DNA of 64,000 bases from Escherichia phage vB-Eco-KMB39. The position numbers and the translations under genes are program-made. Of this stretch, positions 29,907 through 49,130 are shown piece by piece. The notes below the pieces were generated by a model, which was not told where the DNA came from, did no database searches, and was given only the letters and a program-made list of their open reading frames with translations. The stretch is taken from the sequence record OR539219.1, one strand, 5' to 3'. Position 1 is the first letter of the stretch, and each line of letters begins with the position of its first letter.

Positions 29907-30256
29907 TTAGAAAGGTCCTGGATGTCTTCTGCGAACTTGTTGAAGGAGCTGTTGATTTGTTTTTCAACCAATCCTGGCTTACGAGCCACCACATCCGCCT
30001 TCTTTGCGTCTTTGCGCAGCTTTTCATTTTCACGCTCAATAGCAGCAATTGCCTCACGATTTTTATTATTCATCGCGTCAATATAATTATACTGAATTCG
30101 CAAATTATTTAATGCTAAGGCGTTTTCATTGGCCGTTTTTGTAATTTCAGTAACTGATGTTTCTAATCTTTCTACCTTATTTTTTAAAATAATAGATGTT
30201 CCGCCTAATGCTATTACAATTAATAGCAAACCTGCTGTAGTATTACTTAATTGCAT
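29903..30256 (-). CDS. Inner-membrane spanin (i-spanin), Rz analogue
   Basis: 117 aa; N-terminal TMD (TAGLLLIVIALGGTSIIL) followed by charged coiled-coil region. Confidence 0.7.
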   Translation of the reverse strand: MQLSNTTAGLLLIVIALGGTSIILKNKVERLETSVTEITKTANENALALNNLRIQYNYIDAMNNKNREAIAAIERENEKLRKDAKKADVVARKPGLVEKQINSSFNKFAEDIQDLSK

Positions 30257-30750
30257 AAAGTTTTAATAACCTCTACAATATCATCTTGAGAAAGACCGTT
30301 AATTAAAATATGATGTTCAGCCGGAGATTTAGAAATTTTAAAGCATGCCTCAACATCTTCTGCCATATCCGATGCACTACGATTTGGATTACTAATTCCA
30401 AGACGATGCTTTCCAGTCAAAGGATTAACGATGATATAGCATTTACAGCTATTGATATGAACATTGGGCTGAGTCTGATTAATGAACACTTCGCACTCAT
30501 ACTTAGCGAGTTGATTTTCTAAAAAGACTTTCATCTCTTCAACCGCATCAGGAAGCATATCGCGGGCTTGCTCAAGACGACGATTTCGATATTCTTTAAT
30601 GGCAGTTTTCCGCTTGACTTGCTTAGCTAAATCTTTCTTAAGATCGGTGATATATCCAACTCGACGATTTCCTTTGAATACAGAAATCCCATCTGTAGTA
30701 TCACCGTATGCTTCAACGACCATCTCAGTAGTAATAAGCTGCAAATCCAT
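30247..30750 (-). CDS. alc: Alc, inhibitor of host transcription on cytosine-containing DNA
   Basis: 167 aa ORF between the pseT block and rnlA, same size and position as T4 alc. Confidence 0.75.
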   Translation of the reverse strand: MDLQLITTEMVVEAYGDTTDGISVFKGNRRVGYITDLKKDLAKQVKRKTAIKEYRNRRLEQARDMLPDAVEEMKVFLENQLAKYECEVFINQTQPNVHINSCKCYIIVNPLTGKHRLGISNPNRSASDMAEDVEACFKISKSPAEHHILINGLSQDDIVEVIKTLCN

Positions 30751-30781
30751 TATAAAGTCCTCATGTTATGTCAGTAAGATT

Positions 30782-30810
30782 ATTATAACACAACACGAGG
30801 GACTTGTAAA
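30782..30810 (-). promoter_or_regulatory. Sigma70-type phage early promoter for alc
   Basis: Minus strand: -35 TTTACA, 17 nt, -10 TATAAT; shares leader sequence with the promoter at 15609. Confidence 0.6.
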
Positions 30811-30814
30811 CAGC

Positions 30815-32402
<1,588 letters not shown>

Positions 32403-32410
32403 AATAAAAT

Positions 32411-32424
32411 GGGCCTTGCGGCCC
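32411..32424 (-). other. RNA hairpin between nrdB stop and denA start
   Basis: GGGCC-TTGC-GGCCC directly upstream of denA ATG; possible terminator or translational control. Confidence 0.4.
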
Positions 32425-32429
32425 ACTCC

Positions 32430-33608
32430 TTAAAAGTATTTTTTAAAACTCATCATAACTTTATCATCAACATCATTATCAATCTGTGCAACAAGATAAG
32501 ATGACAGTTCTACTTCTTGCGGCGCGGATTGAACATTATCAGAATTAAGGTATTCACGAATCCAAGGATATGGATGTTTAACCGGAGCATCGGTAATTGG
32601 GCATGGAAGACCACACTGTTTCATACGAGATACAGTTAAGTAATCAATAAAGCTCCACATGCTATTTGTATTTAATCCAGGAACATCGCCATCTTTAAAT
32701 AAATGAACTGCCCAATCTTTTTCTTGGCGGTTAACTTCCATGAAAATATCAACTGCTTCTTGTTCACACTCTTTGGCAATTTTAACCCATTCATCACCAT
32801 CAGTGCCAAGTTGAAGTTGACGAATAATATACTGGGTGCCTTTAAGGTGGAGTTGTTCGTCTCGAGCAATGAATTTCATAATCTTCGCATTACCTTCCAT
32901 GATTTCCATATTTTTATGGAAGTTGAAAGTACATGCAAAGGATACATAAAAACGAATAGCTTCCAGGGCATTGATAACATGAAGGCAGAGATAAAGCGAC
33001 TTCATCAATGCATATTTACATTCTTCCACATGCATAAGACTATTTGAATATGCATCTAAATCATATTCATTTTCGGAAAAACATTTAAAAATTTCTTTTG
33101 CATTTTCCCATTCGCGCGTCTTAACCAGAACATCATCATAATAACGACCAATAGATTCAGCACGTTTCATGATAGCTTTATCTAATACAATCTCATCAAA
33201 TACCTTTGACGGATCAGTATAAAGATTTCGCATAATATGAGTGTATGAACGACTGTGAATAGTTTCACTAAAAGTCCATGTAGCAACCCATGTATCAAGA
33301 CTTGGGTCTGAAATTAACGACATAAGTACAGCAGACGGTGCACGACCCTGAATGCTATCTAGAAGTGATTGATACTTCAGGTTATTAGTAAAAATATCTT
33401 GCTGATATTGAGGAAGCTTGTTAAATTGCGCAGCATCCATCATTAAGTTTACTTCTTCAGGACGCCAGAAAAATGACAACTGCTTTTCGGTTAAATCTTC
33501 AAAAACTTTATGACGTTGAATATCGTAACGCGCAATACCAAGACCTGAACCGAAGAACATAGGTTCTTTTAAAACATCAACTGGATTTGTATTAAAAACT
33601 GTAGACAT
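32430..33608 (-). CDS. nrdB: Ribonucleotide reductase small subunit, intronless
   Basis: 392 aa from ATG at 33608 (MSTVFNTNPVD...); di-iron ligand motifs; single uninterrupted ORF. Confidence 0.92.
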   Translation of the reverse strand: MSTVFNTNPVDVLKEPMFFGSGLGIARYDIQRHKVFEDLTEKQLSFFWRPEEVNLMMDAAQFNKLPQYQQDIFTNNLKYQSLLDSIQGRAPSAVLMSLISDPSLDTWVATWTFSETIHSRSYTHIMRNLYTDPSKVFDEIVLDKAIMKRAESIGRYYDDVLVKTREWENAKEIFKCFSENEYDLDAYSNSLMHVEECKYALMKSLYLCLHVINALEAIRFYVSFACTFNFHKNMEIMEGNAKIMKFIARDEQLHLKGTQYIIRQLQLGTDGDEWVKIAKECEQEAVDIFMEVNRQEKDWAVHLFKDGDVPGLNTNSMWSFIDYLTVSRMKQCGLPCPITDAPVKHPYPWIREYLNSDNVQSAPQEVELSSYLVAQIDNDVDDKVMMSFKKYF

Positions 33609-34339
33609 TAATTTTTCCTCTTTAAAATTCTGCCGCGTTTCCAACCTGGCGGTATAATATCATCTTTACCTATAAGCGTGCATTCACTTCCATTATTAAT
33701 CCATTTCTTACCGCGGATTCCTTTATAATCTCTTGGTTGTATTTTGTCAAACTTTGCATCAAGTTGATATGCCCATCGAAATCCATAGGCATATTGAAAT
33801 TTACCCTCAGCACAATATTTGATATTTGACCCGTTTCCATTAACTGACCTGGACGCTGCGGCAATAGAGTGAAAGGTTTCTATGAAATCCCCATCTAATG
33901 AGAATTTATGTATTTCGATAGATGGGCATGCATACCTATTCACGTTTGATACATGTTGTTTAGTTTCGTTTTTATGATGCTTGCCTAACATTCCTCTAGG
34001 ATGAGGATTATTTTTCCAATATTTCTTAAAGAAATCAGAATTAGCTTTAGCAAATAATTTTCTGTGCAAGCTATACAATCTGTTATTAATTCTATTACCA
34101 GCTTTATCTGTTGCCATTAACGTTAACGCAGAGGCAAGACCAAAATGGCCTTCATTTATCTTGCATAGTAATAGATGCGCTATAAAATGTTCTCTAGCTG
34201 TTAATTCAACTAAATTTTCTTTATCATCAGAACCTCCCATGCATTTAGGGACTATATGATGTGTCTCTTTATACTCGGATAAATGTTCCCGAGCCTGAGC
34301 TCGGGAAATTAGGTCATTATAGATTTTTTGATAATTCAT
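33608..34339 (-). CDS. mobE: HNH homing endonuclease MobE
   Basis: 243 aa; HNH motif region ETHHIVPKCMGGSDDKENLVELTAREHFIAH; sits between nrdA and nrdB as T4 mobE; stop overlaps nrdB start (TAATG). Confidence 0.82.
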   Translation of the reverse strand: MNYQKIYNDLISRAQAREHLSEYKETHHIVPKCMGGSDDKENLVELTAREHFIAHLLLCKINEGHFGLASALTLMATDKAGNRINNRLYSLHRKLFAKANSDFFKKYWKNNPHPRGMLGKHHKNETKQHVSNVNRYACPSIEIHKFSLDGDFIETFHSIAAASRSVNGNGSNIKYCAEGKFQYAYGFRWAYQLDAKFDKIQPRDYKGIRGKKWINNGSECTLIGKDDIIPPGWKRGRILKRKN

Positions 34340-36603
34340 TACAATTTACACGCTGCACAATCGTCGGCTTTAGGAGTTTCTATTTCATAATCATCAGTAC
34401 CAGAACCATCACGGGTATTATGATAATAGAAATTTTTAATGCCATAATACCATCCGTATAACATGTCATCAATCATTATTGACATTGGAACCTTTCCTTT
34501 TGGAAAAATCTGCGGGTCATAGTATGTATTCGCTGAAGCTGATTGACATACCCATTTCAGCATAATAGCTACCTGCGTAAGATAAGGTTTATTACCTTTC
34601 TTAGCTAATTTCCACGTATAATCATATAGGTCTATGTTATGCTCAATATTGGGCACGACTTGATTAAAGGAGCCCTCTTTTGATTCTTTAACAGAGACTG
34701 GTCCACGTGGAGGCTCGATACCGTTTGTACTGTTAGAAACTTGGGAAGATGACTCACATGGCATAAGTGCTGATAATGTGCTATTACGGATGCCAAAGAG
34801 CTTAAGGTCTTCCCGCAGCGCCGACCAGTCACAAACGTATTTTGGAGATGCGATTTGGTCAATCTTTTTATTGTACCAGTCGATAGGTAATTCGCCTCGA
34901 GACCAACGAGTGTCTGAATAATATTCGCAAGGTCCTTTTTCTTTGGCGAGCTTAATGGATGCTTTAATGAGTCCATACTGTAATCTCTCAAATAGTTCAT
35001 GTGTTAAATCATTAGCATCTTCATAAGAAGCAAAGTTACTTGCCAGCCAAGCTGCATAGTTGGTAACACCTACGCCAAGATTTCGACGCTTTTTAGCTTT
35101 TTCTGCTTCAGGAACCGGATATCCTTGGTAATCCAAAAGATTATCAAGAGCACGAACTTGAACTTCTGCCAATTCATTAATTTTATCTTGGTCTTGCCAG
35201 TCAAAATTATCTAATACGAATGCAGAGAGAGTACACAATCCAATTTCAGCATCAGGACTATTCACATCATTTGTTGGAATAGCAATTTCACAGCACAAGT
35301 TACTCTGACGAATAGGTGCCTTTTCACGAATAAACGGAGTATAGTTATTCGTATTATCAATGAACTGCACATAAATCCTTGCTGTTCCTGAGCGTTCAGT
35401 CATGAGTAATTCAAATAGTTCACGGGCTTTAATACGCTTTTTACGAATATTAGGGTCTTTTTCTGCGGCTTCGTACAATTCACGGAAACGGTCTTGGTCT
35501 TTAAAATAAGAATAATAAAGCTCGCCACCCATTTCATGCGGACTGAACAAAGTAATGTAGTCGTTCTTTCCAAAACGTTCCATCATCAAATCATTCAGCT
35601 GGACGCCATAATCCATATGACGGATACGGTTTTCTTCTACACCCTTGTTATTTTTTAGAACGAGAAGATTTTCAACTTCCAAATGCCAAATAGGATAATA
35701 AGCAGTAGCAGCGCCGCCACGAATTCCACCCTGTGAGCATGATTTAACAGCAGTCTGAAAATGTTTCCAAAAAGGAATAACACCAGTATGGCGTACTTCA
35801 CCCATGCCAATCTTAGAACCTTCGGCACGAATCATACCAACGTTAATACCAATTCCAGCACGTTTGGAGATATATTCAACAATTGAAGTGGAAGCCTTAT
35901 TGATAGACTTTAATGAATCACCTGCCTCAATAACAACACATGAACTAAACTGTCGAGTCGGAGTACGGCAACCAGCCATAATAGGAGTTGGTAATGAAAT
36001 CTGTCGAGTAGATACTGCTTCATAAAAATGAATAACATGTTTTAATCTATCAATAGGTTCATCTTGATGCAATGCCATTCCAATAGTCATAAATGCAAAC
36101 TGAGGAGTTTCATAAATTTGACCAGTGGTTTTATCTTTAACTAGATATTTTTCTTTTAATTGCATCGCCCCGGAATAAGTAAATTCCATATCCCGCTCGT
36201 GCTTAATTTTTGATTCTAAAAATGTAATTTCTTCTGCTGAATATTTTGACAATAATTCAGGGTCATATTTACCTTCATTTACACAGTAAGAAATATGGTC
36301 AATAAATGAACGTGGTTCATACTGCCCATAAACATGCTTACGAAGAGCAAACATTAAACAACGTGCAGCTACATATTGATAATCAGGCTCTTCAACTGAA
36401 ATAGAATTCGCAGCAGCCTTAATTACAATGGTTTGAATGTCATCAGTGGTCATTCCATCACGGAGATATGATTTAATATTTTCATATAATTCATAAGGAT
36501 CTACAGATGTTCCTTCAGCTGCCCAAGATAAAACTTTAATAATTTTTTGCGGGTCAAAGCTTTGAGAAACACCACTACTTTTGATAACATTAATTAATTG
36601 CAT
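34339..36603 (-). CDS. nrdA: Ribonucleotide reductase large subunit
   Basis: 754 aa; ATP-cone N-terminus, class I RNR catalytic region; same length as T4 NrdA. Confidence 0.93.
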   Translation of the reverse strand: MQLINVIKSSGVSQSFDPQKIIKVLSWAAEGTSVDPYELYENIKSYLRDGMTTDDIQTIVIKAAANSISVEEPDYQYVAARCLMFALRKHVYGQYEPRSFIDHISYCVNEGKYDPELLSKYSAEEITFLESKIKHERDMEFTYSGAMQLKEKYLVKDKTTGQIYETPQFAFMTIGMALHQDEPIDRLKHVIHFYEAVSTRQISLPTPIMAGCRTPTRQFSSCVVIEAGDSLKSINKASTSIVEYISKRAGIGINVGMIRAEGSKIGMGEVRHTGVIPFWKHFQTAVKSCSQGGIRGGAATAYYPIWHLEVENLLVLKNNKGVEENRIRHMDYGVQLNDLMMERFGKNDYITLFSPHEMGGELYYSYFKDQDRFRELYEAAEKDPNIRKKRIKARELFELLMTERSGTARIYVQFIDNTNNYTPFIREKAPIRQSNLCCEIAIPTNDVNSPDAEIGLCTLSAFVLDNFDWQDQDKINELAEVQVRALDNLLDYQGYPVPEAEKAKKRRNLGVGVTNYAAWLASNFASYEDANDLTHELFERLQYGLIKASIKLAKEKGPCEYYSDTRWSRGELPIDWYNKKIDQIASPKYVCDWSALREDLKLFGIRNSTLSALMPCESSSQVSNSTNGIEPPRGPVSVKESKEGSFNQVVPNIEHNIDLYDYTWKLAKKGNKPYLTQVAIMLKWVCQSASANTYYDPQIFPKGKVPMSIMIDDMLYGWYYGIKNFYYHNTRDGSGTDDYEIETPKADDCAACKL

Positions 36604-36920
36604 AAGTCCTCAACTTGAAAATCGTCTTTAAACAATCGGTTAACTATATGAGCTATTATATCACCATGACACGGCTTTGGTTTACATGTGCATCCTAGCC
36701 TCATTCCACGTAAAGGCTCTAAATGTGCTTTAGTTATTTCTCCGGATTTAATTCGACGTATAAAATCTTTTTTGAATAATTCAATGGCAGCCTCCCGGCT
36801 GCCAGCATCTTTACCGACGTAATTTCCCCAAAATGTACCACGGTGAATATTAACATCAAAGTCGGATTTATATTTATTCACTACCTGGCATAGACGGCCC
36901 GCGCGGTGATAATTCGTCAT
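36594..36920 (-). CDS. Hypothetical Cys-rich protein (position of T4 nrdA.1)
   Basis: 108 aa ORF; [11 protein letters not shown] motif. Confidence 0.55.
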
Positions 36921-37149
36921 ATTGTTTTTCCGTTAAAACAGTAATATCATAGTAACAATCTGAAGAAGTTTTAACTGTAGAAATTTTATTATCAAAATAC
37001 TCACGAGTCATTTTATGAGTATAATATTTTTTGCCATAAATGATAATAGGCTGATTTGGTCCTGGAACTTCTAACTCACTTGGGTTAGGAAGTGTAAAAA
37101 GAACTACACCAGAAGTATCTTTAAATCGTAAAATCATATATCCTCGCAA
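36874..37149 (-). CDS. Hypothetical protein (position of T4 nrdA.2)
   Basis: 91 aa ORF. Confidence 0.55.
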
Positions 37150-37160
37150 TTAATAATTAA

Positions 37161-37472
37161 TTACACCGCCATTTTTCCTTTAATAGGAGGGTGTGATTCG
37201 TAACCTTTAAGAACGAAATCTTTAGGCCTGAGTTTAAGAACATATTTTAATTGTTCTTTAGTAGAAAGATGACGGAATTTATAAGGCAATCCGCCTATTA
37301 CCAGTTCACAAAGCTCTTTAGGTTCACGACGTAAAATTTCTTTACATTGTTCAACGTGATTCATATAGATATGAGTATTACCGCCAGAAAATATCAAATC
37401 TCCAGGAATAAGATTACACATCTTAGCTACAATATGAATTAACGCAGCATATGATGCAATATTAAACGGTAG
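37161..37472 (-). CDS. td: Thymidylate synthase, exon 2
   Basis: Exon 2 encodes LPFNIASYAALIHIVAKMCNLIPGDLIFSGGNTHIYMNH...; joins exon 1 in frame after the intron. Confidence 0.9.
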   Translation of the reverse strand, partial: LPFNIASYAALIHIVAKMCNLIPGDLIFSGGNTHIYMNHVEQCKEILRREPKELCELVIGGLPYKFRHLSTKEQLKYVLKLRPKDFVLKGYESHPPIKGKMAV

Positions 37473-38488
37473 CATTATGTTCAGATAAGGTCGTTAATCT
37501 TACCCCGGAATTATATCCAGCTGCATGTCACCATGCAGAGCAGACTATATCTCCAACTTGTTAAAGCAAGTTGTCTATCGTTTCGAGTCACTTGACCCTA
37601 CTCCCAAAAGGGATAGTCGTTAGGCATTTATGTAGAACCAATTCCATTTATCAGATTTTACACGATAAGTAACTAATCCAGACGAAATTTTAAAATGTCT
37701 AGCTGCATCTGCTGCACAATCAAAAATAACCCCATCACATGAAATCTTTTTAATATTACTAGGCTTTTTACCTTTCATCTTTTCTGATATTTTAGATTTA
37801 GTTATGTCTGAATGCTTATGATTAAAGAATGAATTATTTTCACCTGAACGATTTCTGCATTTACTACAAGTATAAGCAGAAGTTTGTATGCGAACACCGC
37901 ACTTACAAAACTTATGGGTTTCTGGATTCCAACGTCCGTTTTTACTTCCGGGTTTACTGTAAAGAGCTTTCCGACCATCAGATCCAAGTTTAAGCATCTT
38001 AGCTTTAACAGTTTCAGAACGTTTCTTAATAATTTCTTCTTTTAATGGATGCGTAGAACATGTATCACCAAACGTTGCATCAGCAATATTGTATCCATTA
38101 ATTTTAGAATTAAGCTCTTTAATCCAAAAATTTTCTCGTTCAATAATCAAATCTTTCTCATATGGAATTTCTTCCAAAATAGAACATTCAAACACATTAC
38201 CATGTTTGTTAAAAGACCTCTGAAGTTTTATAGAAGAATGGCATCCTTTTTCTAAATCTTTAAAATGCCTCTTCCATCTCTTTTCAAAATCTTTAGCACT
38301 TCCTACATATACTTTATTGTTTAAAGTATTTTTAATCTGATAAATTCCGCTTTTCATAAATACCTCTTTAAATATAGAAGTATTTATTAAAGGGCAGTCC
38401 TACAATTTAGCACGGGATTGTCTACTAGAGAGGTTCCCCGTTTAGATAGATTACAAGTATAAGTCACCTTATACTCAGGCCTCAATTA
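37473..38488 (-). ncRNA. Self-splicing group I intron of td (1016 nt) carrying the I-TevI ORF
   Basis: 5' end UAAUUGAGGCCUGAGUAUAAGGUGACUUAUACUUGUAAUCUAUCUAAACGGGGAACCUCUCUAGUAGACAAUCCCGUGCUAAAUUGUAGGACU and 3' end ...GACCUUAUCUGAACAUAAUG match the recalled T4 td intron; exon 1 ends in U, intron ends in G. Confidence 0.9.
37620..38357 (-). CDS. I-TevI: Intron-encoded GIY-YIG homing endonuclease I-TevI
   Basis: 245 aa; MKSGIYQIKNTLNNKVYVGSAKDFEKRWKRH... matches recalled I-TevI; lies inside the td intron. Confidence 0.93.
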   Translation of the reverse strand: MKSGIYQIKNTLNNKVYVGSAKDFEKRWKRHFKDLEKGCHSSIKLQRSFNKHGNVFECSILEEIPYEKDLIIERENFWIKELNSKINGYNIADATFGDTCSTHPLKEEIIKKRSETVKAKMLKLGSDGRKALYSKPGSKNGRWNPETHKFCKCGVRIQTSAYTCSKCRNRSGENNSFFNHKHSDITKSKISEKMKGKKPSNIKKISCDGVIFDCAADAARHFKISSGLVTYRVKSDKWNWFYINA

Positions 38489-39037
38489 ACCCAAGAAAAC
38501 ATCTACTGATCGTTGATACCACTGCAAATCCAAATAGCCATTACGCACATTAAACTGATAGAACATATGACAAGGCGGTAATGCCATTTGCTTGAGTTCA
38601 GCTGGATTCCATGCTGAAACAACTTGACGTCTATCATTTGGCAGTTTTTTAATACGATCAATAACTTCTACAATTTGGTCTACACCGCCAAAATCACGCC
38701 ATTGTTTTCCATAAATTGGACCAAGTTCACCGCTATGGTATCCTAAATCTTTTGCTTGATTTTCGTAATTTTCATCCCAGACTGTTTTGCCTTGAATTAA
38801 TGAATCATGCTGAATTAATCGTAAATCATTTACGTTAGTACTTCCTGACAAAAACCATATTAGCTCAGCAATACAAGCTTTCCAGGCGAGCTTCTTAGTC
38901 GTTACTGCAGGAAAACCTTTAGTTAAATCCCAGCGTAATTTAGTACCGAACAAAGCAATTGTTCCTGTGCCTGTTCGGTCATCGGTTTCATAGCCATTTT
39001 CAAAAATGTCTTTAATTAAATCTTGGTATTGTTTCAT
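38489..39037 (-). CDS. td: Thymidylate synthase, exon 1
   Basis: 183 aa; MKQYQDLIKDIFENGYETDDRTGTGTIALFG...; active-site region ALPPCH; in-frame stop lies just inside the intron. Confidence 0.92.
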
Positions 39038-39082
39038 TTAGTACCTTATATAAATTATAATACATTTTATGAAGCTAAATAA

Positions 39083-39445
39083 TCAATACGGTTTAGCATC
39101 AAATTTTCTTTCAATTTCAGGCGTGAAATACAATTCTTTACCGCGTTTGGAAAAGCGACCAATAATATGATAATTATTCTCATCAAACGTAATATTGCCA
39201 ATATCCATAGCTTTCAACCAAATATCGATATTTCTATCCAGTTTTATATCAAAATTCCAATACGGAGAACTATTACCGAAAATACTGCAAGCGGATTCAG
39301 TGCAATAACTGCTGCTATAAATCTTGTCTTTGGGAACTACTAATTGATAGACGCCTTTGATAAACTGAGGACCCTGCCATTTTGGTTGTTTCGCGTCTTT
39401 TTCTAATAGAATAGGATAATAATTAAAGTTCATATTTTCCGCCAC
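39083..39445 (-). CDS. Hypothetical protein inserted between frd and td (not expected from T4 gene order)
   Basis: 120 aa ORF MAENMNFNYYPILLEKDAKQPKWQGPQF...; no recognised motifs. Confidence 0.55.
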   Translation of the reverse strand: MAENMNFNYYPILLEKDAKQPKWQGPQFIKGVYQLVVPKDKIYSSSYCTESACSIFGNSSPYWNFDIKLDRNIDIWLKAMDIGNITFDENNYHIIGRFSKRGKELYFTPEIERKFDAKPY

Positions 39446-39453
39446 GCGTTATT

Positions 39454-40041
<588 letters not shown>

Positions 40042-40284
40042 TCAAAACCCCCTTTCAATAAACCATTCAGTGGCTTTATTAGCGTCAAAGAATAATTCTT
40101 CATATGTCTTTTCTTTGTTTTCAAAGACTGTCACACAAACACGTTGGCATTCTCCACAGTATTCTTCTGACATACGCAAAGCATCAGAAAACATTTCATT
40201 AAATTCATTTAAATCAGGATTATACAATGCGTTAAAAATTGCATAATCGAATTCATCATTCATAAATTCAAATACAAAAATCAT
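40042..40284 (-). CDS. Hypothetical protein (frd.x series)
   Basis: 80 aa ORF. Confidence 0.55.
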   Translation of the reverse strand: MIFVFEFMNDEFDYAIFNALYNPDLNEFNEMFSDALRMSEEYCGECQRVCVTVFENKEKTYEELFFDANKATEWFIERGF

Positions 40285-40294
40285 ATTATTTTCC

Positions 40295-40537
40295 TTAAAC
40301 AGACTTTTTCACAATTTTCCAATCAGCTTTAAACTGTTCAACGTCAGAGTGGTAAATCCAGAATCCTGCGCTTTCTCCATCCTCATAAAGAGGGCATCCA
40401 TCGCATTCATCTTCCCATCCCATGTCACGTAAAAGATGTTCAGCTTTTTCAACAAGTTCAGAATCTTTACCTATGATATTAAAATACCATTTACCTCTAA
40501 CTTCTGAATCTTTAATGCTCTGGCGTTGTAATCTCAT
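40295..40537 (-). CDS. Hypothetical protein (frd.x series)
   Basis: 80 aa ORF preceded by early promoter. Confidence 0.55.
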   Translation of the reverse strand: MRLQRQSIKDSEVRGKWYFNIIGKDSELVEKAEHLLRDMGWEDECDGCPLYEDGESAGFWIYHSDVEQFKADWKIVKKSV

Positions 40538-40562
40538 TTTATTCTCCTTAGTTGATAGGGTA

Positions 40563-40591
40563 ATAGTATCACACTACTACCCTACTGTAAA
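40563..40591 (-). promoter_or_regulatory. Sigma70-type phage early promoter (conserved cassette)
   Basis: Minus strand: -35 GTTTACA, 17 nt, -10 TACTAT, then leader with GGAG and ATG at 40537. Confidence 0.6.
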
Positions 40592-40972
40592 CTACTTTTT
40601 GAAAGTTTTTCGCAAAAGTTCAATGATTTCATCTACATTGTTTTCGTCTACAATGCAGTGAATTTTTGTTACGCCAGAAATCTTGTCTTCGACTTCATCT
40701 TCTTCAGAAGTCGGTTCTTTATACTCACGAAAACAATGAAATTCGTCTTCACAAATTTCTAAAAGTCTATCTTTGAGGTAAAAATGCTTTCCATTTGCGC
40801 ATTCAATGTGTTTTACTGCTTTATATCCATTAGCGACAGAAACTTCTTTAACTTCAAACCATCCGCCATTATCTCGAATAGCTTTAACTATTGATGAATT
40901 AGAACGTGGGCTATAATTAATAAATGTATCAATAAGTCTTGGAACAAGTTCATACTTTCTACCAGTATACAT
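40592..40972 (-). CDS. Hypothetical protein (frd.x series)
   Basis: 126 aa ORF. Confidence 0.6.
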   Translation of the reverse strand: MYTGRKYELVPRLIDTFINYSPRSNSSIVKAIRDNGGWFEVKEVSVANGYKAVKHIECANGKHFYLKDRLLEICEDEFHCFREYKEPTSEEDEVEDKISGVTKIHCIVDENNVDEIIELLRKTFKK

Positions 40973-40992
40973 TGTGTTTTCCTCATTTTAAC

Positions 40993-41009
40993 GGGGCTGT
41001 AATAGCCCC
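40993..41009 (-). other. RNA hairpin between small early genes
   Basis: GGGGCTGTAATAGCCCC. Confidence 0.4.
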
Positions 41010-41016
41010 TTGATAA

Positions 41017-41247
41017 TTATTGTTCAATCAGTCCCATATAAAATTCTGCATCTTCAGAATCCATGCCATCACAATATTCATTAGCCATAAAGCGGGTGAG
41101 GTCTTCAAGAGGACCTTCAATGACAATAGAAAAATTGCAATAATTGGGATCATCATGAATACTTGTGATACTAAGTTCAGGATAACGATTACGAATAATT
41201 TCTTCAATATATTCAAAATCAACGATGTCAATATCAACTTTAGCCAT
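41017..41247 (-). CDS. Hypothetical acidic protein downstream of gene 32
   Basis: 76 aa ORF preceded by early promoter. Confidence 0.55.
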
Positions 41248-41291
41248 ATTATTTTCCTCTTTTAATCATCAGCAGTATTGCCGATAGTTGT

Positions 41292-41320
41292 ATAGTACCA
41301 TGGAATGACAAGAATGTAAA
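41292..41320 (-). promoter_or_regulatory. Sigma70-type phage early promoter (conserved cassette)
   Basis: Minus strand: -35 TTTACA, 17 nt, -10 TACTAT; A/T-rich UP-like tract upstream. Confidence 0.6.
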
Positions 41321-41351
41321 CTGTTTTGTGAAAAAATTTTAAAATAAAAAA

Positions 41352-41370
41352 GGGGACCTCTAGGGTCCCC
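41352..41370 (-). terminator. Gene 32 intrinsic terminator
   Basis: GGGGACC-TCTA-GGGTCCCC; minus-strand hairpin followed by UUUUUAUUUU about 25 nt after the gene 32 stop. Confidence 0.7.
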
Positions 41371-41392
41371 AATTAATTAGTAATATAATCTA

Positions 41393-42298
41393 TTAAAGGT
41401 CATTCAAAAGGTCATCCAGGTCCGTGTCATCAGCACCAGATGAACTGCCAGAGATTGAGCTCATAAAATCATCTTCAGTTTTTGGTTTGAAGTCATCAAC
41501 ATTGAATGCATCCAAATCATCAGCAACTTTATCAGCTTTCTTAGCAGCAGTTGCAGCGGCACCGCCCATCACAGCAGTTCCCATAACTTGACCGAATTTA
41601 GTGCTCAGTTCTTCAAATGATTTGAATTTATCTTTAGAAGTCATTTCAGAAAGGTCAACCATTTGTTCGAACAGTTCTTTCTGGAAAGATTCATCATCAA
41701 TGTTTGGAATCGCAGATTGATTCAGGAATTTAGATTCGTCGTAGTTACTAAAACCAGAAACTTGTTTAACTTTCAGTACAAAGTTAGCACCTTCCCACGG
41801 ACAAGTTACATCAACCGGAGTTTCACCCATTTCAACATCAACTGCAATCATTGCATTGATTTTATCCCAGATTTTCTTACCGAAACGGTATTTAAATACT
41901 TTACCTTCATTTTCTGGAGCAGCTGGGTCTTTTACTACAAGAATGTTAGCCCAGTAAGAAGTTTTACGTTTAACAAGACCGTACTCTTTATTGTCAGTGT
42001 TATACAAATCATTTTTACTGATGTATTGACATACTGGGCAAGAATCGTAATCACCGTGGGTAGATGAACATGTTTCAATATACCATTTACCATTTTTCTT
42101 GAAACCGTGATTTACAAGAATTGCGAATGGTGCTTGTTCATCATTTTTAGACGGAAGAAAACGAATTACTGCTTGACCGTTACCCGCATTATCGAGTTTC
42201 AGTTTCCACTCGCCTTTATCTTCAGAAGAAAAACCTTTATTGCCATTCAGTTTAGCCATTTGTGCAGCAAGTTCAGCAGTAGATTTACGTTTAAACAT
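41393..42298 (-). CDS. 32: Single-stranded DNA-binding protein gp32
   Basis: 301 aa; [49 protein letters not shown]...; zinc ligands; acidic C-terminus; matches recalled T4 gp32. Confidence 0.95.
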
Positions 42299-42370
42299 TT
42301 TATTTCCTTTTTAATTTAATTTAATTAACAGTTGGTGCTATGACACTTTACCTCATAGCTGGCATAATTC
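42299..42370 (-). promoter_or_regulatory. Gene 32 autoregulatory translational operator (pseudoknot plus unstructured A/U-rich tract)
   Basis: mRNA leader ...AUGAGGUAAAGUGUCAUAGCACCAACUGUUAAUUAAAUUAAAUUAAAAAGGAAAUAAA-AUG matches the recalled T4 gene 32 operator; overlaps 3' end of segG. Confidence 0.7.
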
Positions 42371-42985
42371 GCAATACTCTGGGTCTTCGAGAGGTATCCA
42401 ACCTGAGTTGAAATACTTTACCATCGATTTAGCAGTTGTATCAGTTATATTTATATTACCTTTAACTCTTCGCCATCCAGGAGTTTTACCGTACAGATTA
42501 GAGGATAATAATAACACATAATTCTCGTAAGCAATATGAGATAATTTCCAAGACTCTATATTAGCTCGTGATGTTTTCCAAGGTCTAAAATCGTCACGGT
42601 TCATATAATTAGCCAATCTCATATGCTCTCTAACTTCCGGGTCTTTAGCTGGATGAGTTTCACCACTCACACCAAATCCACCACCAGCATATACCAGATT
42701 AAAATAGTCTGGATTATCTCTGGCATTTACTTCAAGTTGGTATTTTCGTTCTGCTTCAATAACATCCAAGTCATCATCAATTTGAATTATTTTAACGCTC
42801 GGTTTTTGAAGCATTACCGCATTCAAAAATCTTTTTTGTTTACATGAGCTCCAGTATTCCTTTCCGGAAGAGTCATATATTATTCCGTTCTCAAATGAGC
42901 AATTTAATTTACTACCGATATAGTAGTATGGCGGAGTCTTATTTTTGACACGGTCTTCAAATGTAAACCAATATACTATATTCAT
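42353..42985 (-). CDS. segG: GIY-YIG homing endonuclease SegG
   Basis: 210 aa; N-terminal GIY-YIG-like motif (IVYWFTFEDRVKNKTPPYYYIGSK); located between genes 32 and 59 as T4 segG. Confidence 0.7.
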   Translation of the reverse strand: MNIVYWFTFEDRVKNKTPPYYYIGSKLNCSFENGIIYDSSGKEYWSSCKQKRFLNAVMLQKPSVKIIQIDDDLDVIEAERKYQLEVNARDNPDYFNLVYAGGGFGVSGETHPAKDPEVREHMRLANYMNRDDFRPWKTSRANIESWKLSHIAYENYVLLLSSNLYGKTPGWRRVKGNINITDTTAKSMVKYFNSGWIPLEDPEYCELCQL

Positions 42986-42986
42986 A

Positions 42987-43640
42987 TCAATACTTGCAAG
43001 ATTTCACAGTTTCAATGAAAACATTTTTAGCTTTCTGTGAATCAATATTTAAAATTTTTCTATAAGCCTTTAACTTTATAGAATAATTATTCCAGACTAA
43101 ATTATCAGTCTGTTCATCGTGTTTATCAATTATATTTAAAAACGAATCAAGCAAGATAAACGTCTCAAACGAAATTATGTTCGATTGCAGAAGTTTAAAA
43201 ATATAACTTGACTGAACCTTTGGATTATATTCAAAGATTTCTTTAAAAGCAGAAACTTCAACTTTTTTACTAAAATAGTAAATATTGCGAATATCTTCTT
43301 CAAACTTAAACTTAATTTGCTTTAAGCGTCCGATATATTCACGATAAAACACAAGTGCATCAGCGTCAGAGATGTCGCCAATCCAAGCATCTTGGTTAGC
43401 AACCAAATTACTTATAAAGATTAAAGCGAGTTCCTTTAATTTATATTTTTCTGATAACTTCTGGAAAAAATACTTATCCCTTCGCTTTTGATAAGCGGCA
43501 TCAGACACCCGCATGCACCAATTATACTTAATAACATCATACTTTCCATTCATATGTTGTTTTATCATTAAGTATAATTTATAAACTGATTTACCATCAA
43601 TGTATCTTTCACCACCAGCAGGCATGCGGAGTTTAATCAT
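42987..43640 (-). CDS. 59: gp59 helicase loader
   Basis: 217 aa; same length and position as T4 gp59. Confidence 0.88.
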   Translation of the reverse strand: MIKLRMPAGGERYIDGKSVYKLYLMIKQHMNGKYDVIKYNWCMRVSDAAYQKRRDKYFFQKLSEKYKLKELALIFISNLVANQDAWIGDISDADALVFYREYIGRLKQIKFKFEEDIRNIYYFSKKVEVSAFKEIFEYNPKVQSSYIFKLLQSNIISFETFILLDSFLNIIDKHDEQTDNLVWNNYSIKLKAYRKILNIDSQKAKNVFIETVKSCKY

Positions 43641-43975
43641 AGCAGAAAATCTAATGTATTAGTTTTTTCACAACGAACAACAGAAGGACGTAAAAGATTT
43701 TCGTCAATAGCTTCCGACTGAATTTTTTCAATTATACCCGAAGGAATAAATTTAGCAAATTGAGTTTCAGGAATAGAGTTTTCTTCCAAGAATGCTGTCG
43801 TAGCTTCAAGATAACTCATTCCAAACTCTTCTACCATTTTTTCAATAATAAATCCATTTTCTTGACGATCAAGAAGCTTTGCTATTTCATCCTTTTCTTT
43901 CTTGATTGAAAGTTCTTTTTCTGAAAGACCGGTCTCATCGACCGGACGAATATCATTTAGAGAAAACTGTGTCAT
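43637..43975 (-). CDS. 33: gp33 late-transcription co-activator
   Basis: 112 aa from ATG at 43975 (MTQFSLNDIRPVDETG...). Confidence 0.85.
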   Translation of the reverse strand: MTQFSLNDIRPVDETGLSEKELSIKKEKDEIAKLLDRQENGFIIEKMVEEFGMSYLEATTAFLEENSIPETQFAKFIPSGIIEKIQSEAIDENLLRPSVVRCEKTNTLDFLL

Positions 43976-44222
43976 AAAGTTCAACTACCTCTTCAGTTTC
44001 AGCTTCAAACACATCACGGTTATCTTTATGATACAAAGCTAATAGACGATTAAACATCTTACCATCAACGCCAAGTTCATCTTTGGCACGAATTCGAATA
44101 TCTTTAATCAGTTCATTATAACCGGAAATTTTCAGTTTATGATCAGATGCTTCTTTAATAAATTTAGCCAAGTCTTCGCCATGGATAGCTTCATCAAATT
44201 CAACCATTTCTTTTTTAGCCAT
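43953..44222 (-). CDS. dsbA: DsbA double-stranded DNA-binding protein
   Basis: 89 aa; size and position as T4 dsbA; overlaps gene 33 start. Confidence 0.8.
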   Translation of the reverse strand: MAKKEMVEFDEAIHGEDLAKFIKEASDHKLKISGYNELIKDIRIRAKDELGVDGKMFNRLLALYHKDNRDVFEAETEEVVELYDTVFSK

Positions 44223-44230
44223 TATTCACC

Positions 44231-45148
44231 TCAAAATTCATTAATGCTGTTAGTTAATTTAGAAAGACCCGCTTTTACAAAATATGAATAAATTTTGCCA
44301 CGCGGTGGTAATTTATATGAATTATAGTAATTCACAATGTTTGAAGCAATATTATCAGGAATATAATCAAAATCAATTAGAACTAAATTTTCTTTATAAC
44401 GATTATATTCAGATTCTGTGAGAAGCACCTTAGCTTGCTCACGGTCATTAGCAATAGCTTCAACGATTGAAGTTTTCATTGAAGGAGTTCGTTCACCTTC
44501 AACTCTGGTAAACCAAAAGTCAGATCGTACTTTAACTGAAGCAACGTTATCCTTTTTGTCGCCTTTAAGGATTTTAGTCATACAGTCAATTTCAGCAGAA
44601 CCGCTTTTAATTTTAACCCATTTCTTATGCATCGGTGACCATTGCTTAACATTTGGGTATTTGTGAAGCTGTGTAAAGTCACCATCCGACGAAATGATTA
44701 AAATTTTATGTCCTTCTAAAGAGAACTTTTTAACAAGAACAGCAATGTGGTCATCTGCTTCATACTTATCAATATCCATAACAATGTATGGCATATAAGC
44801 TTTCAATTCATCTATAACTTTATGGCTGGATTCAAAATAACCTTCCCAGTCCCAAGTAGATTCTTCTCGTGCTTTTCCGCGGTTTTTCTTGTAATAGTAA
44901 GCAAAATCACGACGCCAATATCCAGATTTCGCATTATCAATACACAGTACAATTTTAGTGTATCCAAGCGTTTTTGCTTTTTTGACATTAAACTTAATTG
45001 AGTTCAATATCAAATGACGAACCATTGATAAATTAATTTTTTCTTTATCTGGGAAGTTTACCAAAGCAGTTGAAAGCGCAATTTGACTAAAGTCAATAAA
45101 GCAAATTCCTTCTTTGTAATCTTCATCCAACATCATTTCTAAATCCAT
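44231..45148 (-). CDS. rnh: RNase H (5'-3' exonuclease / flap endonuclease)
   Basis: 305 aa from ATG at 45148 (MDLEMMLDEDYKEG...); FEN-family acidic residues. Confidence 0.9.
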   Translation of the reverse strand: MDLEMMLDEDYKEGICFIDFSQIALSTALVNFPDKEKINLSMVRHLILNSIKFNVKKAKTLGYTKIVLCIDNAKSGYWRRDFAYYYKKNRGKAREESTWDWEGYFESSHKVIDELKAYMPYIVMDIDKYEADDHIAVLVKKFSLEGHKILIISSDGDFTQLHKYPNVKQWSPMHKKWVKIKSGSAEIDCMTKILKGDKKDNVASVKVRSDFWFTRVEGERTPSMKTSIVEAIANDREQAKVLLTESEYNRYKENLVLIDFDYIPDNIASNIVNYYNSYKLPPRGKIYSYFVKAGLSKLTNSINEF

Positions 45149-45210
45149 ATGAACCTCGTTCAATTAGTGAGATTTATATTATATACCATCCAAATCTTAA
45201 AGTAAACAAG

Positions 45211-45218
45211 TATAAATA
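45211..45218 (+). promoter_or_regulatory. Late promoter (TATAAATA) for gene 34
   Basis: Exact TATAAATA about 35 nt upstream of gene 34 ATG. Confidence 0.65.
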
Positions 45219-45252
45219 CTTATTATTGAAAACACAATAGGAGCCCGGGAGA

Positions 45253-48200
45253 ATGGCCGAGATTAAAAGAAAGTTCAGAGCAGAAGATGGTCTGGACGCA
45301 GGTGGTGATAAAATAATCAACGTAGCTTTAGCTGATCGTGCCGTAGGAACTGACGGCGTTAACGTTGATTACTTAATTCAAGAAAACACAGTTCAACAAT
45401 ATGATCCAACTCGTGGATATTTAAAAGATTTTGTAATCATTTATGATAACCGCTTTTGGGCTGCTATAAATGATATTCCAAAACCAGCAGGAGCTTTTAA
45501 TAGCGTACGATGGAGAGCGTTACGTACTGATGCAAACTGGACAACTGTTTCATCAGGACCTTATCAATTAAAATCGGGCGAATCAATTTCAGTTGATACT
45601 GCAGCTGGTAATGACATTACATTTACTTTACCATCTTCTCCAATTGATGGTGATACCATCGTTCTCCAAGATATTGGAGGAAAACCTGGAGTTAATCAAG
45701 TTTTAATTACAGCTCCGGTACAAAGCATTGTAAATTTTAGAGGTCAGCAAGTACGTTCAGTACTAATGACTCATCCAAAATCACAGATAGTTTTAATTTT
45801 TAGTAATCGTCTGTGGCAAATGTATGTTGCTGATTATAGTAGAGAAGCTGTAGTTGTAACTCCTGCGAGTCTCTATCAGGCACAATCAAACGATTTTATC
45901 GTACGTAGATTTACTTCTGCTTCAGCAATTAATATTAAACTTCCAAGATTTGCCAATCATGGCGATATTATTAATTTCGTTGATTTGGATAAATTAAATC
46001 CTCTTTATCACACAATTGTTACTACATATGATGAAACAACTTCAGTACAAGAAGTTGGAACTCATTCCATTGAAGGCCGTACATCGATTGACGGTTTCTT
46101 GATGTTTGATGATAATGAGAAATTGTGGAGATTGTTTGACGGGGATAGTAAAGCACGTTTACGCATTATAACAACTAATTCTAATATTCGTCCAAACGAA
46201 GAAGTCATGGTATTTGGCGCGAATAATGGAACAACCCAAACAATTGAACTTCAGCTTCCGACTGATATTTCTGTTGGTGATACTGTTAAAATTTCCATGA
46301 ATTATATGAGAAAAGGACAAACAGTTAAAATCAAAGCTGCCGGTGAAGATAAAATTGCTTCTTCAGTTCAATTGCTGCAATTCCCAAAACGTTCAGAATA
46401 TCCACCTGAAGCTGAATGGGTGACTGTTCAAGAATTAGTTTTTAACGGCGAAACTAATTATGTTCCAGTTTTACAGCTTGCTTATATAGAAGATTCTGAT
46501 GGAAAATACTGGGTGGTACAACAAAACGTTCCAACAGTTGAAAGAGTTGATTCTTTAAATGATTCTACTAGAGCAAGATTAGGCGTAATTGCTTTAGCTA
46601 CACAAGCTCAAGCAAATGCTGATTTAGAAAATTCTCCGCAAAAAGAATTAGCAATTACACCAGAAACATTAGCTAACCGTACTGCTACAGAAACTCGTAG
46701 AGGTATCGCAAGAATAGCAACTACTGCCCAAGTGAACCAGGATACTACATTCTCTTTTGCAGATGACCTTATCATTACTCCTAAAAAGCTGAATGAAAGA
46801 ACTGCTACAGAAACTCGTAGAGGTGTCGCAGAAATTGCTACGCAGCAAGAAACTAATGCAGGAACCGATGATACTACAATCATCACTCCTAAAAAGCTTC
46901 AAGCTCGCCAAGGTTCTGAATCATTATCTGGTATTGTAACCTTTGTATCTACTGCAGGTGCTACTCCAGCTTCTAGCCGTGAATTAAATGGTACGAATGT
47001 TTATAATAAAAACACTAATAATTTAGTTGTTTCACCTAAAGCTTTGGATCAGTATAAAGCTACTCCAACACAACAAGGTGCGGTAATTTTAGCAGTTGAA
47101 AGTGAAGTAATTGCTGGACAAAGTCAGGAAGGATGGGCAAATGCTGTTGTAACGCCAGAAACGTTACATAAAAAGACATCAACTGATGGAAGAATTGGTT
47201 TAATTGAAATTGCTACGCAAAGTGAAGTTAATACAGGAACTGATTATACTCGTGCAGTCACTCCTAAAACTTTAAATGACCGTAGAGCAACTGAAAGTTT
47301 AAGTGGTATAGCTGAAATTGCTACACAGGTTGAATTCGACGCAGGCGTCGACGATACTCGTATCTCTACACCATTAAAAATTAAAACCAGATTTAATAGT
47401 ACTGATCGTACTTCTGTTGTTGCTCTATCTGGATTAGTTGAATCAGGAACTCTCTGGGACCATTATACCCTTGATATTCTTGAAGCAAATGAGACACAGC
47501 GTGGTACACTTCGTGTAGCTACACAGGTCGAAGCTGCTGCAGGAACATTAGATAATGTTTTAATAACTCCTAAAAAGCTTTTAGGTACTAAATCTACTGA
47601 AGCACAAGAAGGTGTTATTAAAGTTGCAACTCAGTCTGAAACTGTGGCTGGAACGTCAGCAAATACTGCTGTATCTCCAAAAAATTTAAAATGGATTGTG
47701 CAGAGTGAACCTACCTGGGCAGCTACTACTACAGTAAGAGGCTTTGTTAAAACTTCATCTGGTTCAATTACATTTGTCGGTAATGATACGGTAGGTTCAA
47801 CACAGCCATTAGAATCATATGAGAAAAATGGTTATGCAGTATCACCATATGAATTAAACCGTGTATTAGCAAATTATTTGCCATTAAAAGCAAAAGCTGT
47901 AGATAGTAATTTATTGGATGGTCTAGATTCATCTCAGTTCATTCGTAGGGACATTGCGCAGACAGTTAATGGTTCACTAACCTTAACCCAACAAACGAAT
48001 CTGAGTGCCCCTCTTGTATCATCTAGTACTGCTACGTTTGGTGGTTCAGTTTCGGCAAATAGTGTACTAACTATTTCTAATACTGGAACAGAAACTCATC
48101 TGATTTTTGAGAAAGGACCTCAAACTGGAACTAACCAAGCGCAGACGGTGACTATTAGAGTGTGGGGTAATCAATTTAGTGGGGAATCAGACACAACACG

Positions 48201-49122
48201 TTCTACTGTATTTGAAGTTGGTGATGAAACGTCTAATCATTTTTATTCTCAGCGCAATAAAGCCGGAAATATAACATTTAATATCAACGGTACAGTAACA
48301 CCGATAAATGTTAATGCTTCAGGAACATTGAATGCAAATGGCGTAGCAACATTTGGTAATTCAGTCACTGCAACTGGTGAAATTATTTCTCGAAGCGCAA
48401 ATGCTTTCCGTGCTATTAGCGGAAATTATGGTTTCATTGTTCGCAATGACGGGTCAGTAACGAATTTTATGCTTACTGCATCGGGTGATCAGACTGGCGG
48501 ATTTAATGGATTGCGTCCTTTAGCTATCAATAATGCATCTGGTCAAGTAACGATTGGCGAAAGCTTAATCATTGCCAAAGGTGCTACTATAAATTCAGGC
48601 GGTTTGACTGTTAACTCGAGAATTCGTTCTCAGGGTACTAAAACATCTGATTTATATACCCGCGCACCAACAACTGATACTGTAGGATTCTGGTCAATTG
48701 ATATTAACGATTCAGCCACTTATAATCAGTTCCCGGGTTATTTTAAAATGGTTGAAAAAACTAATGAAGTGACTGGACTTCCATACTTAGAACGTGGTGA
48801 AGAGGTTAAATCTCCTGGTACATTGACTCAGTTTGGTAACACACTTGATTCGCTTTACCAAGATTGGATTACTTATCCAACAACACCAGAAGCGCGTACC
48901 ACTCGTTGGACACGCACATGGCAGAAAACCAAAAACTCTTGGTCAAGTTTTGTTCAGGTATTTGACGGAGGTAACCCTCCTCAACCGTCTGATATTGGTG
49001 CTTTACCATCTGATAATGCTATAATGGGTAATCTTACTATTCGTGATTTCTTACGAATTGGTAATGTTCGCATTGTTCCTGACCCAGTGAATAAAACGGT
49101 TAAATTTGAATGGGTTGAATAA
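45253..49122 (+). CDS. 34: Long tail fibre proximal subunit gp34
   Basis: 1289 aa (same as T4 gp34); MAEIKRKFRAEDGLDAGGDKIINVALADR...; internal beta-repeat motifs. Confidence 0.93.
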   Translation: MAEIKRKFRAEDGLDAGGDKIINVALADRAVGTDGVNVDYLIQENTVQQYDPTRGYLKDFVIIYDNRFWAAINDIPKPAGAFNSVRWRALRTDANWTTVSSGPYQLKSGESISVDTAAGNDITFTLPSSPIDGDTIVLQDIGGKPGVNQVLITAPVQSIVNFRGQQVRSVLMTHPKSQIVLIFSNRLWQMYVADYSREAVVVTPASLYQAQSNDFIVRRFTSASAINIKLPRFANHGDIINFVDLDKLNPLYHTIVTTYDETTSVQEVGTHSIEGRTSIDGFLMFDDNEKLWRLFDGDSKARLRIITTNSNIRPNEEVMVFGANNGTTQTIELQLPTDISVGDTVKISMNYMRKGQTVKIKAAGEDKIASSVQLLQFPKRSEYPPEAEWVTVQELVFNGETNYVPVLQLAYIEDSDGKYWVVQQNVPTVERVDSLNDSTRARLGVIALATQAQANADLENSPQKELAITPETLANRTATETRRGIARIATTAQVNQDTTFSFADDLIITPKKLNERTATETRRGVAEIATQQETNAGTDDTTIITPKKLQARQGSESLSGIVTFVSTAGATPASSRELNGTNVYNKNTNNLVVSPKALDQYKATPTQQGAVILAVESEVIAGQSQEGWANAVVTPETLHKKTSTDGRIGLIEIATQSEVNTGTDYTRAVTPKTLNDRRATESLSGIAEIATQVEFDAGVDDTRISTPLKIKTRFNSTDRTSVVALSGLVESGTLWDHYTLDILEANETQRGTLRVATQVEAAAGTLDNVLITPKKLLGTKSTEAQEGVIKVATQSETVAGTSANTAVSPKNLKWIVQSEPTWAATTTVRGFVKTSSGSITFVGNDTVGSTQPLESYEKNGYAVSPYELNRVLANYLPLKAKAVDSNLLDGLDSSQFIRRDIAQTVNGSLTLTQQTNLSAPLVSSSTATFGGSVSANSVLTISNTGTETHLIFEKGPQTGTNQAQTVTIRVWGNQFSGESDTTRSTVFEVGDETSNHFYSQRNKAGNITFNINGTVTPINVNASGTLNANGVATFGNSVTATGEIISRSANAFRAISGNYGFIVRNDGSVTNFMLTASGDQTGGFNGLRPLAINNASGQVTIGESLIIAKGATINSGGLTVNSRIRSQGTKTSDLYTRAPTTDTVGFWSIDINDSATYNQFPGYFKMVEKTNEVTGLPYLERGEEVKSPGTLTQFGNTLDSLYQDWITYPTTPEARTTRWTRTWQKTKNSWSSFVQVFDGGNPPQPSDIGALPSDNAIMGNLTIRDFLRIGNVRIVPDPVNKTVKFEWVE
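46660..46870 (+). repeat. Near-identical direct repeats within gene 34 (tail-fibre repeat units)
   Basis: ACTGCTACAGAAACTCGTAGAGGT(A/G)TCGCA recurs about 120 bp apart, encoding ERTATETRRG(I/V)A(R/E)IAT; further degenerate copies downstream. Confidence 0.7.
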
Positions 49123-49130
49123 GAGGTATT

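Follow-up and report, generated by a model that had tools for sequence, protein, structure and literature searches.

Organization of the td locus

The window analyzed in this study is a 64,000-nt stretch of DNA from Escherichia phage vB-Eco-KMB39 (OR539219.1). Inspection of the sequence between 36700 and 39100 together with the list of open reading frames (ORFs) demonstrated that the td locus lies on the minus strand, with exon 1, an insert, and exon 2 arranged in a row as follows.

38489..39037, minus strand: td exon 1, 183 codons with the last residues VDVFLG; 94.7% identity to T4; the uninterrupted td genes of SP1 and T2 are colinear with it
37473..38488, minus strand: td group I intron, 1016 nt; 99.6% identity to the T4 td intron and 100% to that of Paracelsus
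37161..37472, minus strand: td exon 2, first residues LPFNIASYA, stop codon included; 91.7% identity to T4

Exon 1 was found to end with GTTTTCTTGGGT (VDVFLG) at 38489, and the insert opens with UAAUUGAGGCC / TAATTGAGGCCTGAGTATAAGGTGACTTATAC / UAAUUGAGG at 38488, directly after the exon U. At the opposite end, the insert closes with CTGAACATAATG (...CAUAAUG in the RNA) at 37473, where the terminal base G (omega-G) abuts exon 2, while exon 2 begins with CTACCGTTTAATATT (LPFNIASYA) at 37472 and its frame runs to the stop at 37161. When exon 1 was read on into the insert, the resulting ORF (38486..39037, ...QRSVDVFLG) terminated at a TAA codon consisting of the insert bases 1–3. The original prediction had placed a 1016-nt insert between an exon 1 ending with VDVFLG and an exon 2 starting with LPFNIASYA, and the sequence agreed with it to the base.

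Both td exon frames were open, and translation of the joined exons gave a 286-amino acid protein that aligned with positions 1–266 of the 266-position Pfam profile Thymidylat_synt (PF00303) with a score of 320.9 bits (E = 7e-96). This spliced Td differed from the Td of the intron-less phage SP1 by only one amino acid. The splice junction was further confirmed by the intron-less alleles of SP1 and T2, in which td consists of one 861-nt ORF that runs colinear with the joined exons across exactly the same point. Many GenBank phage records split td into two CDSs around a homing endonuclease and name them "thymidylate synthase" or hypothetical protein.

Comparison of the insert with the T4 td intron

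The phage from which the window derives was shown to be a Tequatrovirus; over 20 kb, its identity to RB3 is approximately 96%. A search of the phage collection with the window region 30000–50000 returned no record at ≥99% identity. In T4 (NC_000866.4, T4p237/T4p238), the td intron and I-TevI occupy the same gene and the same insertion point as in the window, and the T4 gene order of frd, td with I-TevI, nrdA.2, nrdA.1, and nrdA is identical to that of the window. Alignment with NC_000866.4 gave identities of 99.6% for the intron, 94.7% for exon 1, and 91.7% for exon 2, and the boundary sequences were identical to those of T4; the claim that both ends of the insert match the T4 td intron was thus borne out, and the alignment that had been proposed as a check on it returned the near-identity expected.

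Only four aligned positions differed between the insert and the T4 reference td intron. One is a T after intron position 92 that the window does not have, resulting in a length of 1016 nt as compared with 1017 nt in the T4 record. Two others lie in the internal ORF: one gives S126 for P126, and the other leaves the protein unchanged. The fourth, a single base in the loop of P7.1, is the only difference within the ribozyme core. The td intron of Paracelsus was 100% identical to the insert, and 170 records of the phage collection were found to hold the intron at ≥99% identity. Judged from sequence matches of this extent, chance is not a serious alternative as their source.

Secondary structure of the ribozyme core

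The core was revealed to be split into two parts by the ORF-holding segment.

38396..38494, minus strand: ribozyme 5' part, comprising P1, P2, and the 5' strands of P3, P4–P5, P6, and P6a
37473..37641, minus strand: ribozyme 3' part, comprising the 3' strands of P6a and P6, followed by P7, P7.1, P7.2, the P3 3' strand, P8, P9, P9.1, P9.2, and the terminal G

The 5' strands of P1–P6a fall within intron positions 1–89 and the remainder within 854–1016, leaving between them an ORF-bearing loop of 764 nt. In P1, the last six nucleotides of exon 1 (UUGGGU) form six canonical pairs with the internal guide GCCUGA; the last exon U was paired with G in all eight homologues compared, and three pairs of P1 varied on one side among these homologues with the pairing kept. 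Throughout P1, P2, P3, P4, P5, P6, P6a, P7, P7.1, P7.2, P8, P9, P9.1, and P9.2, every one of the 74 pairs was canonical in the window. P7 is formed by GACUAU/AUAGUC, and the P3/P7 pseudoknot is the one that holds the guanosine-binding site in group I introns. The conserved J8/7–P7 string GATATAGTC was found within the window only in the td intron.

In the alignment of the eight homologues, 99.7% of cells paired, as opposed to 31–42% when the 3' partners were slid by 1–3 columns. Compensatory changes on both sides were observed in four pairs, namely a U-A to C-G change in P7.2, an A-U to U-A change in P8, and two changes in P9.2, and the observed covariation score of these homologues was reached by no shuffle. 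This covariation signal, read from an alignment whose members are 96% identical on average and in which P2–P7.1, P9, and P9.1 never vary, is real but limited. The minimum free energy (MFE) fold of the ORF-deleted core recovered P2, P3, P4, P5, P6, P6a, P7.1, P7.2, P8, P9, and P9.1 with a z score of −3.3; P7 is a pseudoknot and therefore cannot appear in such a fold. Failure of the region to fold into the P3–P7 core had been named in advance as the outcome that would speak against a group I intron, and it did not occur, given the fully canonical pairing and the covariation in relatives.

Two of the helices given above replaced earlier assignments. On the basis of the ORF-less Rfam alignment, the MFE fold, and the covariation, P6 as UAGG/CCUA was dropped for P6 GC/GC plus P6a UGUAG/CUACA, and P7.2 as GAGU/ACUC was dropped for GGGUC/GACUC.

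Rfam searches

Rfam/Infernal, which had been suggested as a check on the intron, gave a divided answer. Searches of the whole 64-kb window yielded no match, either at the gathering threshold or at E ≤ 0.01. With the region 37350–38620 alone, the model RF00028 matched at 37521..37751 with 40.2 bits (E = 1.7e-8), covering the 3' half of the core only and remaining below its gathering threshold of 50 bits, which is an operational and not a biological criterion. The ORF-less copies of the intron in PD112 (262 nt) and 235Ecol030PP (319 nt), on the other hand, passed this cut-off with 73.8 bits. The search thus failed on the window and succeeded on its ORF-less counterparts, and we regard the silence of Rfam on the window as a false negative, because the ORF-bearing 764-nt P6a loop interrupts the core. 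A routine Rfam scan misses this genuine intron, and negative covariance-model scans of phage genomes accordingly do not exclude ORF-bearing introns.

The "P1/P2" part of the local RF00028 alignment was spurious, falling within the I-TevI ORF, and the other weak local matches (snoRNAs, STnc340, and group II D1–D4; E from 0.35 to 7.3) were dismissed as chance.

GTP-dependent self-splicing with ligation of the exons is established knowledge for the T4 td intron (PMC2988022), and by analogy with this near-identical molecule, the intron of the window would be expected to splice in the same manner.

The I-TevI ORF and its regulatory and target sites

The features assigned to the endonuclease and its control were as follows.

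37620..38357, minus strand: I-TevI ORF, 245 amino acids, intron positions 132–869
38381..38388, minus strand: putative late-promoter box AATAAATA, intron positions 101–108, upstream of I-TevI; 7/8 match to TATAAATA
38384..38405, minus strand: operator-like copy of the I-TevI binding site, TTGTAGGACTGCCCTTTAATAA, intron positions 84–105; overlaps the late promoter
38356..38387, minus strand: predicted hairpin AUAAAUACUUCU/AGAGGUAUUUAU of 12 bp, which pairs the I-TevI Shine–Dalgarno GAGG and the AU of the AUG; from the fold of intron positions 55–150
38511..38515, minus strand: I-TevI cleavage motif CAACG (5'-CNNNG-3') in exon 1, at −27..−23 from the insertion site

The ORF product displayed three Pfam domains, all above the cut-offs: GIY-YIG (PF01541, residues 3–90), I-TevI_ZnF (PF22635, residues 149–179), and I-TevI_DNA-bd (PF20987, residues 192–242). 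It shared 244 of 245 residues with T4 I-TevI; the one exception is linker residue 126, S in the window and P in T4, and homologues whose ORFs are intact have S, P, T, or I there. Residues 130–245 were identical to PDB 1i3j, the crystallized DNA-binding fragment of I-TevI, and residues 1–97 were identical to PDB 1mk0, a catalytic-domain chain, except at position 75, which is alanine in 1mk0. The internal 245-amino acid ORF had been taken for I-TevI in the original prediction, and the domains together with the match to the T4 protein place this identification on firm ground. By analogy with the T4 element, its product presumably cleaves intron-less td in a site-specific manner. The last 16 nt of the ORF double as the 3' strands of P6a and P6, and most of the ORF sits in the loop closing P6a.

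Within the intron, 7/8 matches to TATAAATA were found at only two sites, one of which is AATAAATA, and a late promoter has been described at this place in the T4 td intron (PMC2988022). The operator-like copy TTGTAGGACTGCCCTTTAATAA was identical to the binding region of the homing site in the window, TCTTGGGTCTACCGTTTAATAT, at 15 of 22 positions; it was the best such match in the intron, the runner-up reaching 12/22. I-TevI is known to repress its own expression through an operator resembling the homing site, and a regulatory hairpin limits its translation to late infection, so that ribosomes spare the folding of the intron (PMC2988022). The promoter box overlaps the 5' arm of the predicted hairpin, and transcripts starting just downstream would consequently be devoid of that arm. 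The T4 td intron and the intron of the window share the late-promoter box, the operator-like site, and the ribosome-binding-site hairpin, and from this sequence identity, we infer that the three sites probably function in the window as they do in T4.

The cuts made by I-TevI fall at a CXXXG motif and lie 23 and 25 nt upstream of the point of intron insertion (PMC2988022). The motif CAACG at −27..−23 was also present in the intron-less alleles of SP1 and T2.

At intron positions 92/93 (window 38396/38397), NC_000866.4 reads GGACTTGCCC and the window reads GGACTGCCC. The GGACTGCCC form is common to the window, Paracelsus, and no fewer than three further relatives inspected at this site. The extra T of the T4 record falls inside the operator-like site, and a strain difference and a sequence error are both possible. 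The published length of the td intron is 1016 nt.

Related introns in td and in other T4 genes

Three phages, vB_vPM_PD112 (262 nt), 235Ecol030PP (319 nt), and e11/2 (445 nt), were found to carry td introns with a near-identical core at the insertion site used in the window. All or most of I-TevI is gone from these introns, whereas the ORF is complete in the window copy. The shortened introns resemble successive steps in the loss of the endonuclease, with the ribozyme left in place. The e11/2 intron has a 55-amino acid remnant of I-TevI.

More distant counterparts were identified in Salmonella phage CGG4-1 (Gelderlandvirus) and Enterobacter phage EnC07 (Karamvirus), both of which possess the same site and architecture with I-TevI-like ORFs of 243–260 amino acids. 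Their introns are approximately 79–80% identical to that of the window, and the compensatory changes of P7.2, P8, and P9.2, which support the structure, are found in them.

The T4 introns in nrdB (I-TevIII) and nrdD (I-TevII) likewise belong to group I, reside in genes of nucleotide metabolism, and contain endonuclease ORFs (PMC2988022), but differ from the td intron in their host genes and endonucleases. Late or middle promoters, operators, and hairpins have also been described for the ORFs of the nrdB and nrdD introns (PMC2988022). Unlike in T4, nrdB in the window (32430..33644, minus strand) is one uninterrupted ORF, with no nrdB intron or I-TevIII.

Empty sites and a putative homing footprint

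To find empty sites, a 300-nt query spanning the spliced junction was compared with the phage collection. Approximately 575 phage records matched this query, many of them, including T2 and vB_EcoM_SP1, being contiguous across the junction, while approximately 198 records of the collection carried ≥80% of the intron in one place. The original prediction that the intron distinguishes this phage from intron-less T-even relatives was thus upheld by the empty sites of T2 and SP1.

The exons of the window were 99.2% identical to those of the intron-less SP1 but only 92–95% identical to those of T4, corresponding to 7 differences over 861 nt from SP1 and 55 from T4. The positions close to the insertion site deviated from this overall pattern: at −6, −4, +3, and +6, the window is the same as T4 and differs from SP1, whereas at −22 and +18, it is the same as SP1 and differs from T4. 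Within an otherwise SP1-like td, the T4-like stretch therefore spans no more than 38 bp (−21 to +17), and its 5' limit is not more than a base or two away from the I-TevI cut site at −23/−25. The locus displayed the features by which a homing intron is recognized, that is, presence or absence at one precise site, an intron more conserved than its exons, and co-conversion-like flanks. It also illustrates how a near-invariant element spreads over diverged td alleles.

Double-strand-break repair with co-conversion of flanking exon has been described for td homing (PMC2988022). With this precedent, the distribution of the exon differences suggests that td may keep the footprint of one recent homing event, in which a T4-type intron would have entered an SP1-type allele with a conversion tract of at most 38 bp; we put the chances of this reading at about even. 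Selection for P1 pairing could alternatively have caused the T4-like bases at −6 and −4, but this explanation fails for +3 and +6, where SP1-type bases occur in other intron-bearing phages. If the footprint is indeed that of a homing event, intron homing among such phages in nature can proceed with hardly any resection past the break.

Proposed working of the element

The anatomy, near-identity to T4, pairing and covariation, empty sites, and co-conversion-like footprint observed above suggest how the element would work when they are set beside experiments on the near-identical T4 element, on which its chemistry, expression timing, and homing are modeled here. The intron would be transcribed within the td pre-mRNA, and the RNA would fold into a group I core, with P1 presenting the exon U·G pair, P3–P8 and P4–P6 constituting two domains, and P7 serving as the guanosine-binding pseudoknot. 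The intron would excise itself by two transesterifications, with free guanosine as the starter, and ligation of ...VDVFLG to LPFNIASYA... would furnish the 286-amino acid thymidylate synthase.

I-TevI, for its part, would be made late in infection. On read-through transcripts, its ribosome-binding site would be hidden in the hairpin, and the late promoter located within the hairpin 5' arm would give rise to transcripts with a free ribosome-binding site. The endonuclease might also bind the operator-like copy of its target that lies over the late promoter. In a mixed infection, I-TevI would cut intron-less td 23 and 25 nt upstream of the insertion, at CAACG, and repair off the intron-containing allele would copy in the intron together with a short stretch of exon.

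Assignment of the element and alternative explanations

We are nearly certain that the element is the T4-type td group I intron with I-TevI, residing in the td gene of a T4-like (Tequatrovirus) phage. As such, it is an already known, textbook, and ordinary element, the one on which intron homing has been modeled, with nothing new biologically. Annotation is where the finding matters, and td should hence be annotated as one joined CDS with the intron and I-TevI. A truly split td, in which two thymidylate synthase fragments would surround a free-standing endonuclease gene with no splicing, is what the paired CDSs and homing endonuclease annotated in many GenBank records imply, and an in-frame ATG derived from the last 3 nt of the insert does precede exon 2. 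However, the sequence flanking the ORF is a complete group I core with covariation, ORF-less copies of this core pass Rfam, and the insert departs from the T4 td intron at only four aligned positions. Moreover, the thymidylate synthase profile is covered end to end only by the joined exons, and a single fragment would, judging from this coverage, be an incomplete thymidylate synthase fold. We consider a split gene extremely improbable on these grounds. No more credible in our estimation is a decayed relic, i.e., an immobile insert that splices poorly in a phage reliant on the host thyA: all helices are canonical, the one core nucleotide that differs from T4 is in a loop, and the td exons are open and encode a spliced protein one amino acid away from SP1 Td. 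The silence of Rfam on the window could be read in favor of such a relic, although nothing direct points to it.

The loss of mobility with splicing kept, in which I-TevI would be inactive or mis-regulated like the defective I-TevIII of the T4 nrdB intron, appears slightly less remote but still very unlikely. What could be held for it is that S126 replaces P126 in the linker that sets the cleavage distance, and that the truncated and ORF-less td introns of relatives indicate that the ORF can decay. In the window, nevertheless, the ORF is full length, its residues 1–97 and 130–245 match 1mk0 (save for position 75) and 1i3j, respectively, residue 126 varies (S, P, T, or I) in homologues with intact ORFs, and the promoter, the operator-like site, and the hairpin are intact.

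Neighboring genes

Several other ORFs near td and the nrd genes were noted in the window.

39083..39445, minus strand: 120-amino acid ORF between frd and td, with no Pfam match
33608..34339, minus strand: 243-amino acid ORF between nrdA and nrdB, with HNH and NUMOD1 domains
42353..42985, minus strand: 210-amino acid ORF directly upstream of the 301-amino acid ORF at 41393..42298

In T4, frd and td overlap with no gene between them, whereas T2 and SP1 have a hypothetical ORF there, as does the window. The ORF at 33608..34339 was 99–100% identical to ORFs of many T4-like phages, including one designated MobE in an RB3 record; the mobE gene at this position in T4 encodes only 141 amino acids. The ORF at 41393..42298 presumably occupies the position of T4 gene 32, and that at 42353..42985 the place of T4 segG, which encodes a GIY-YIG endonuclease.
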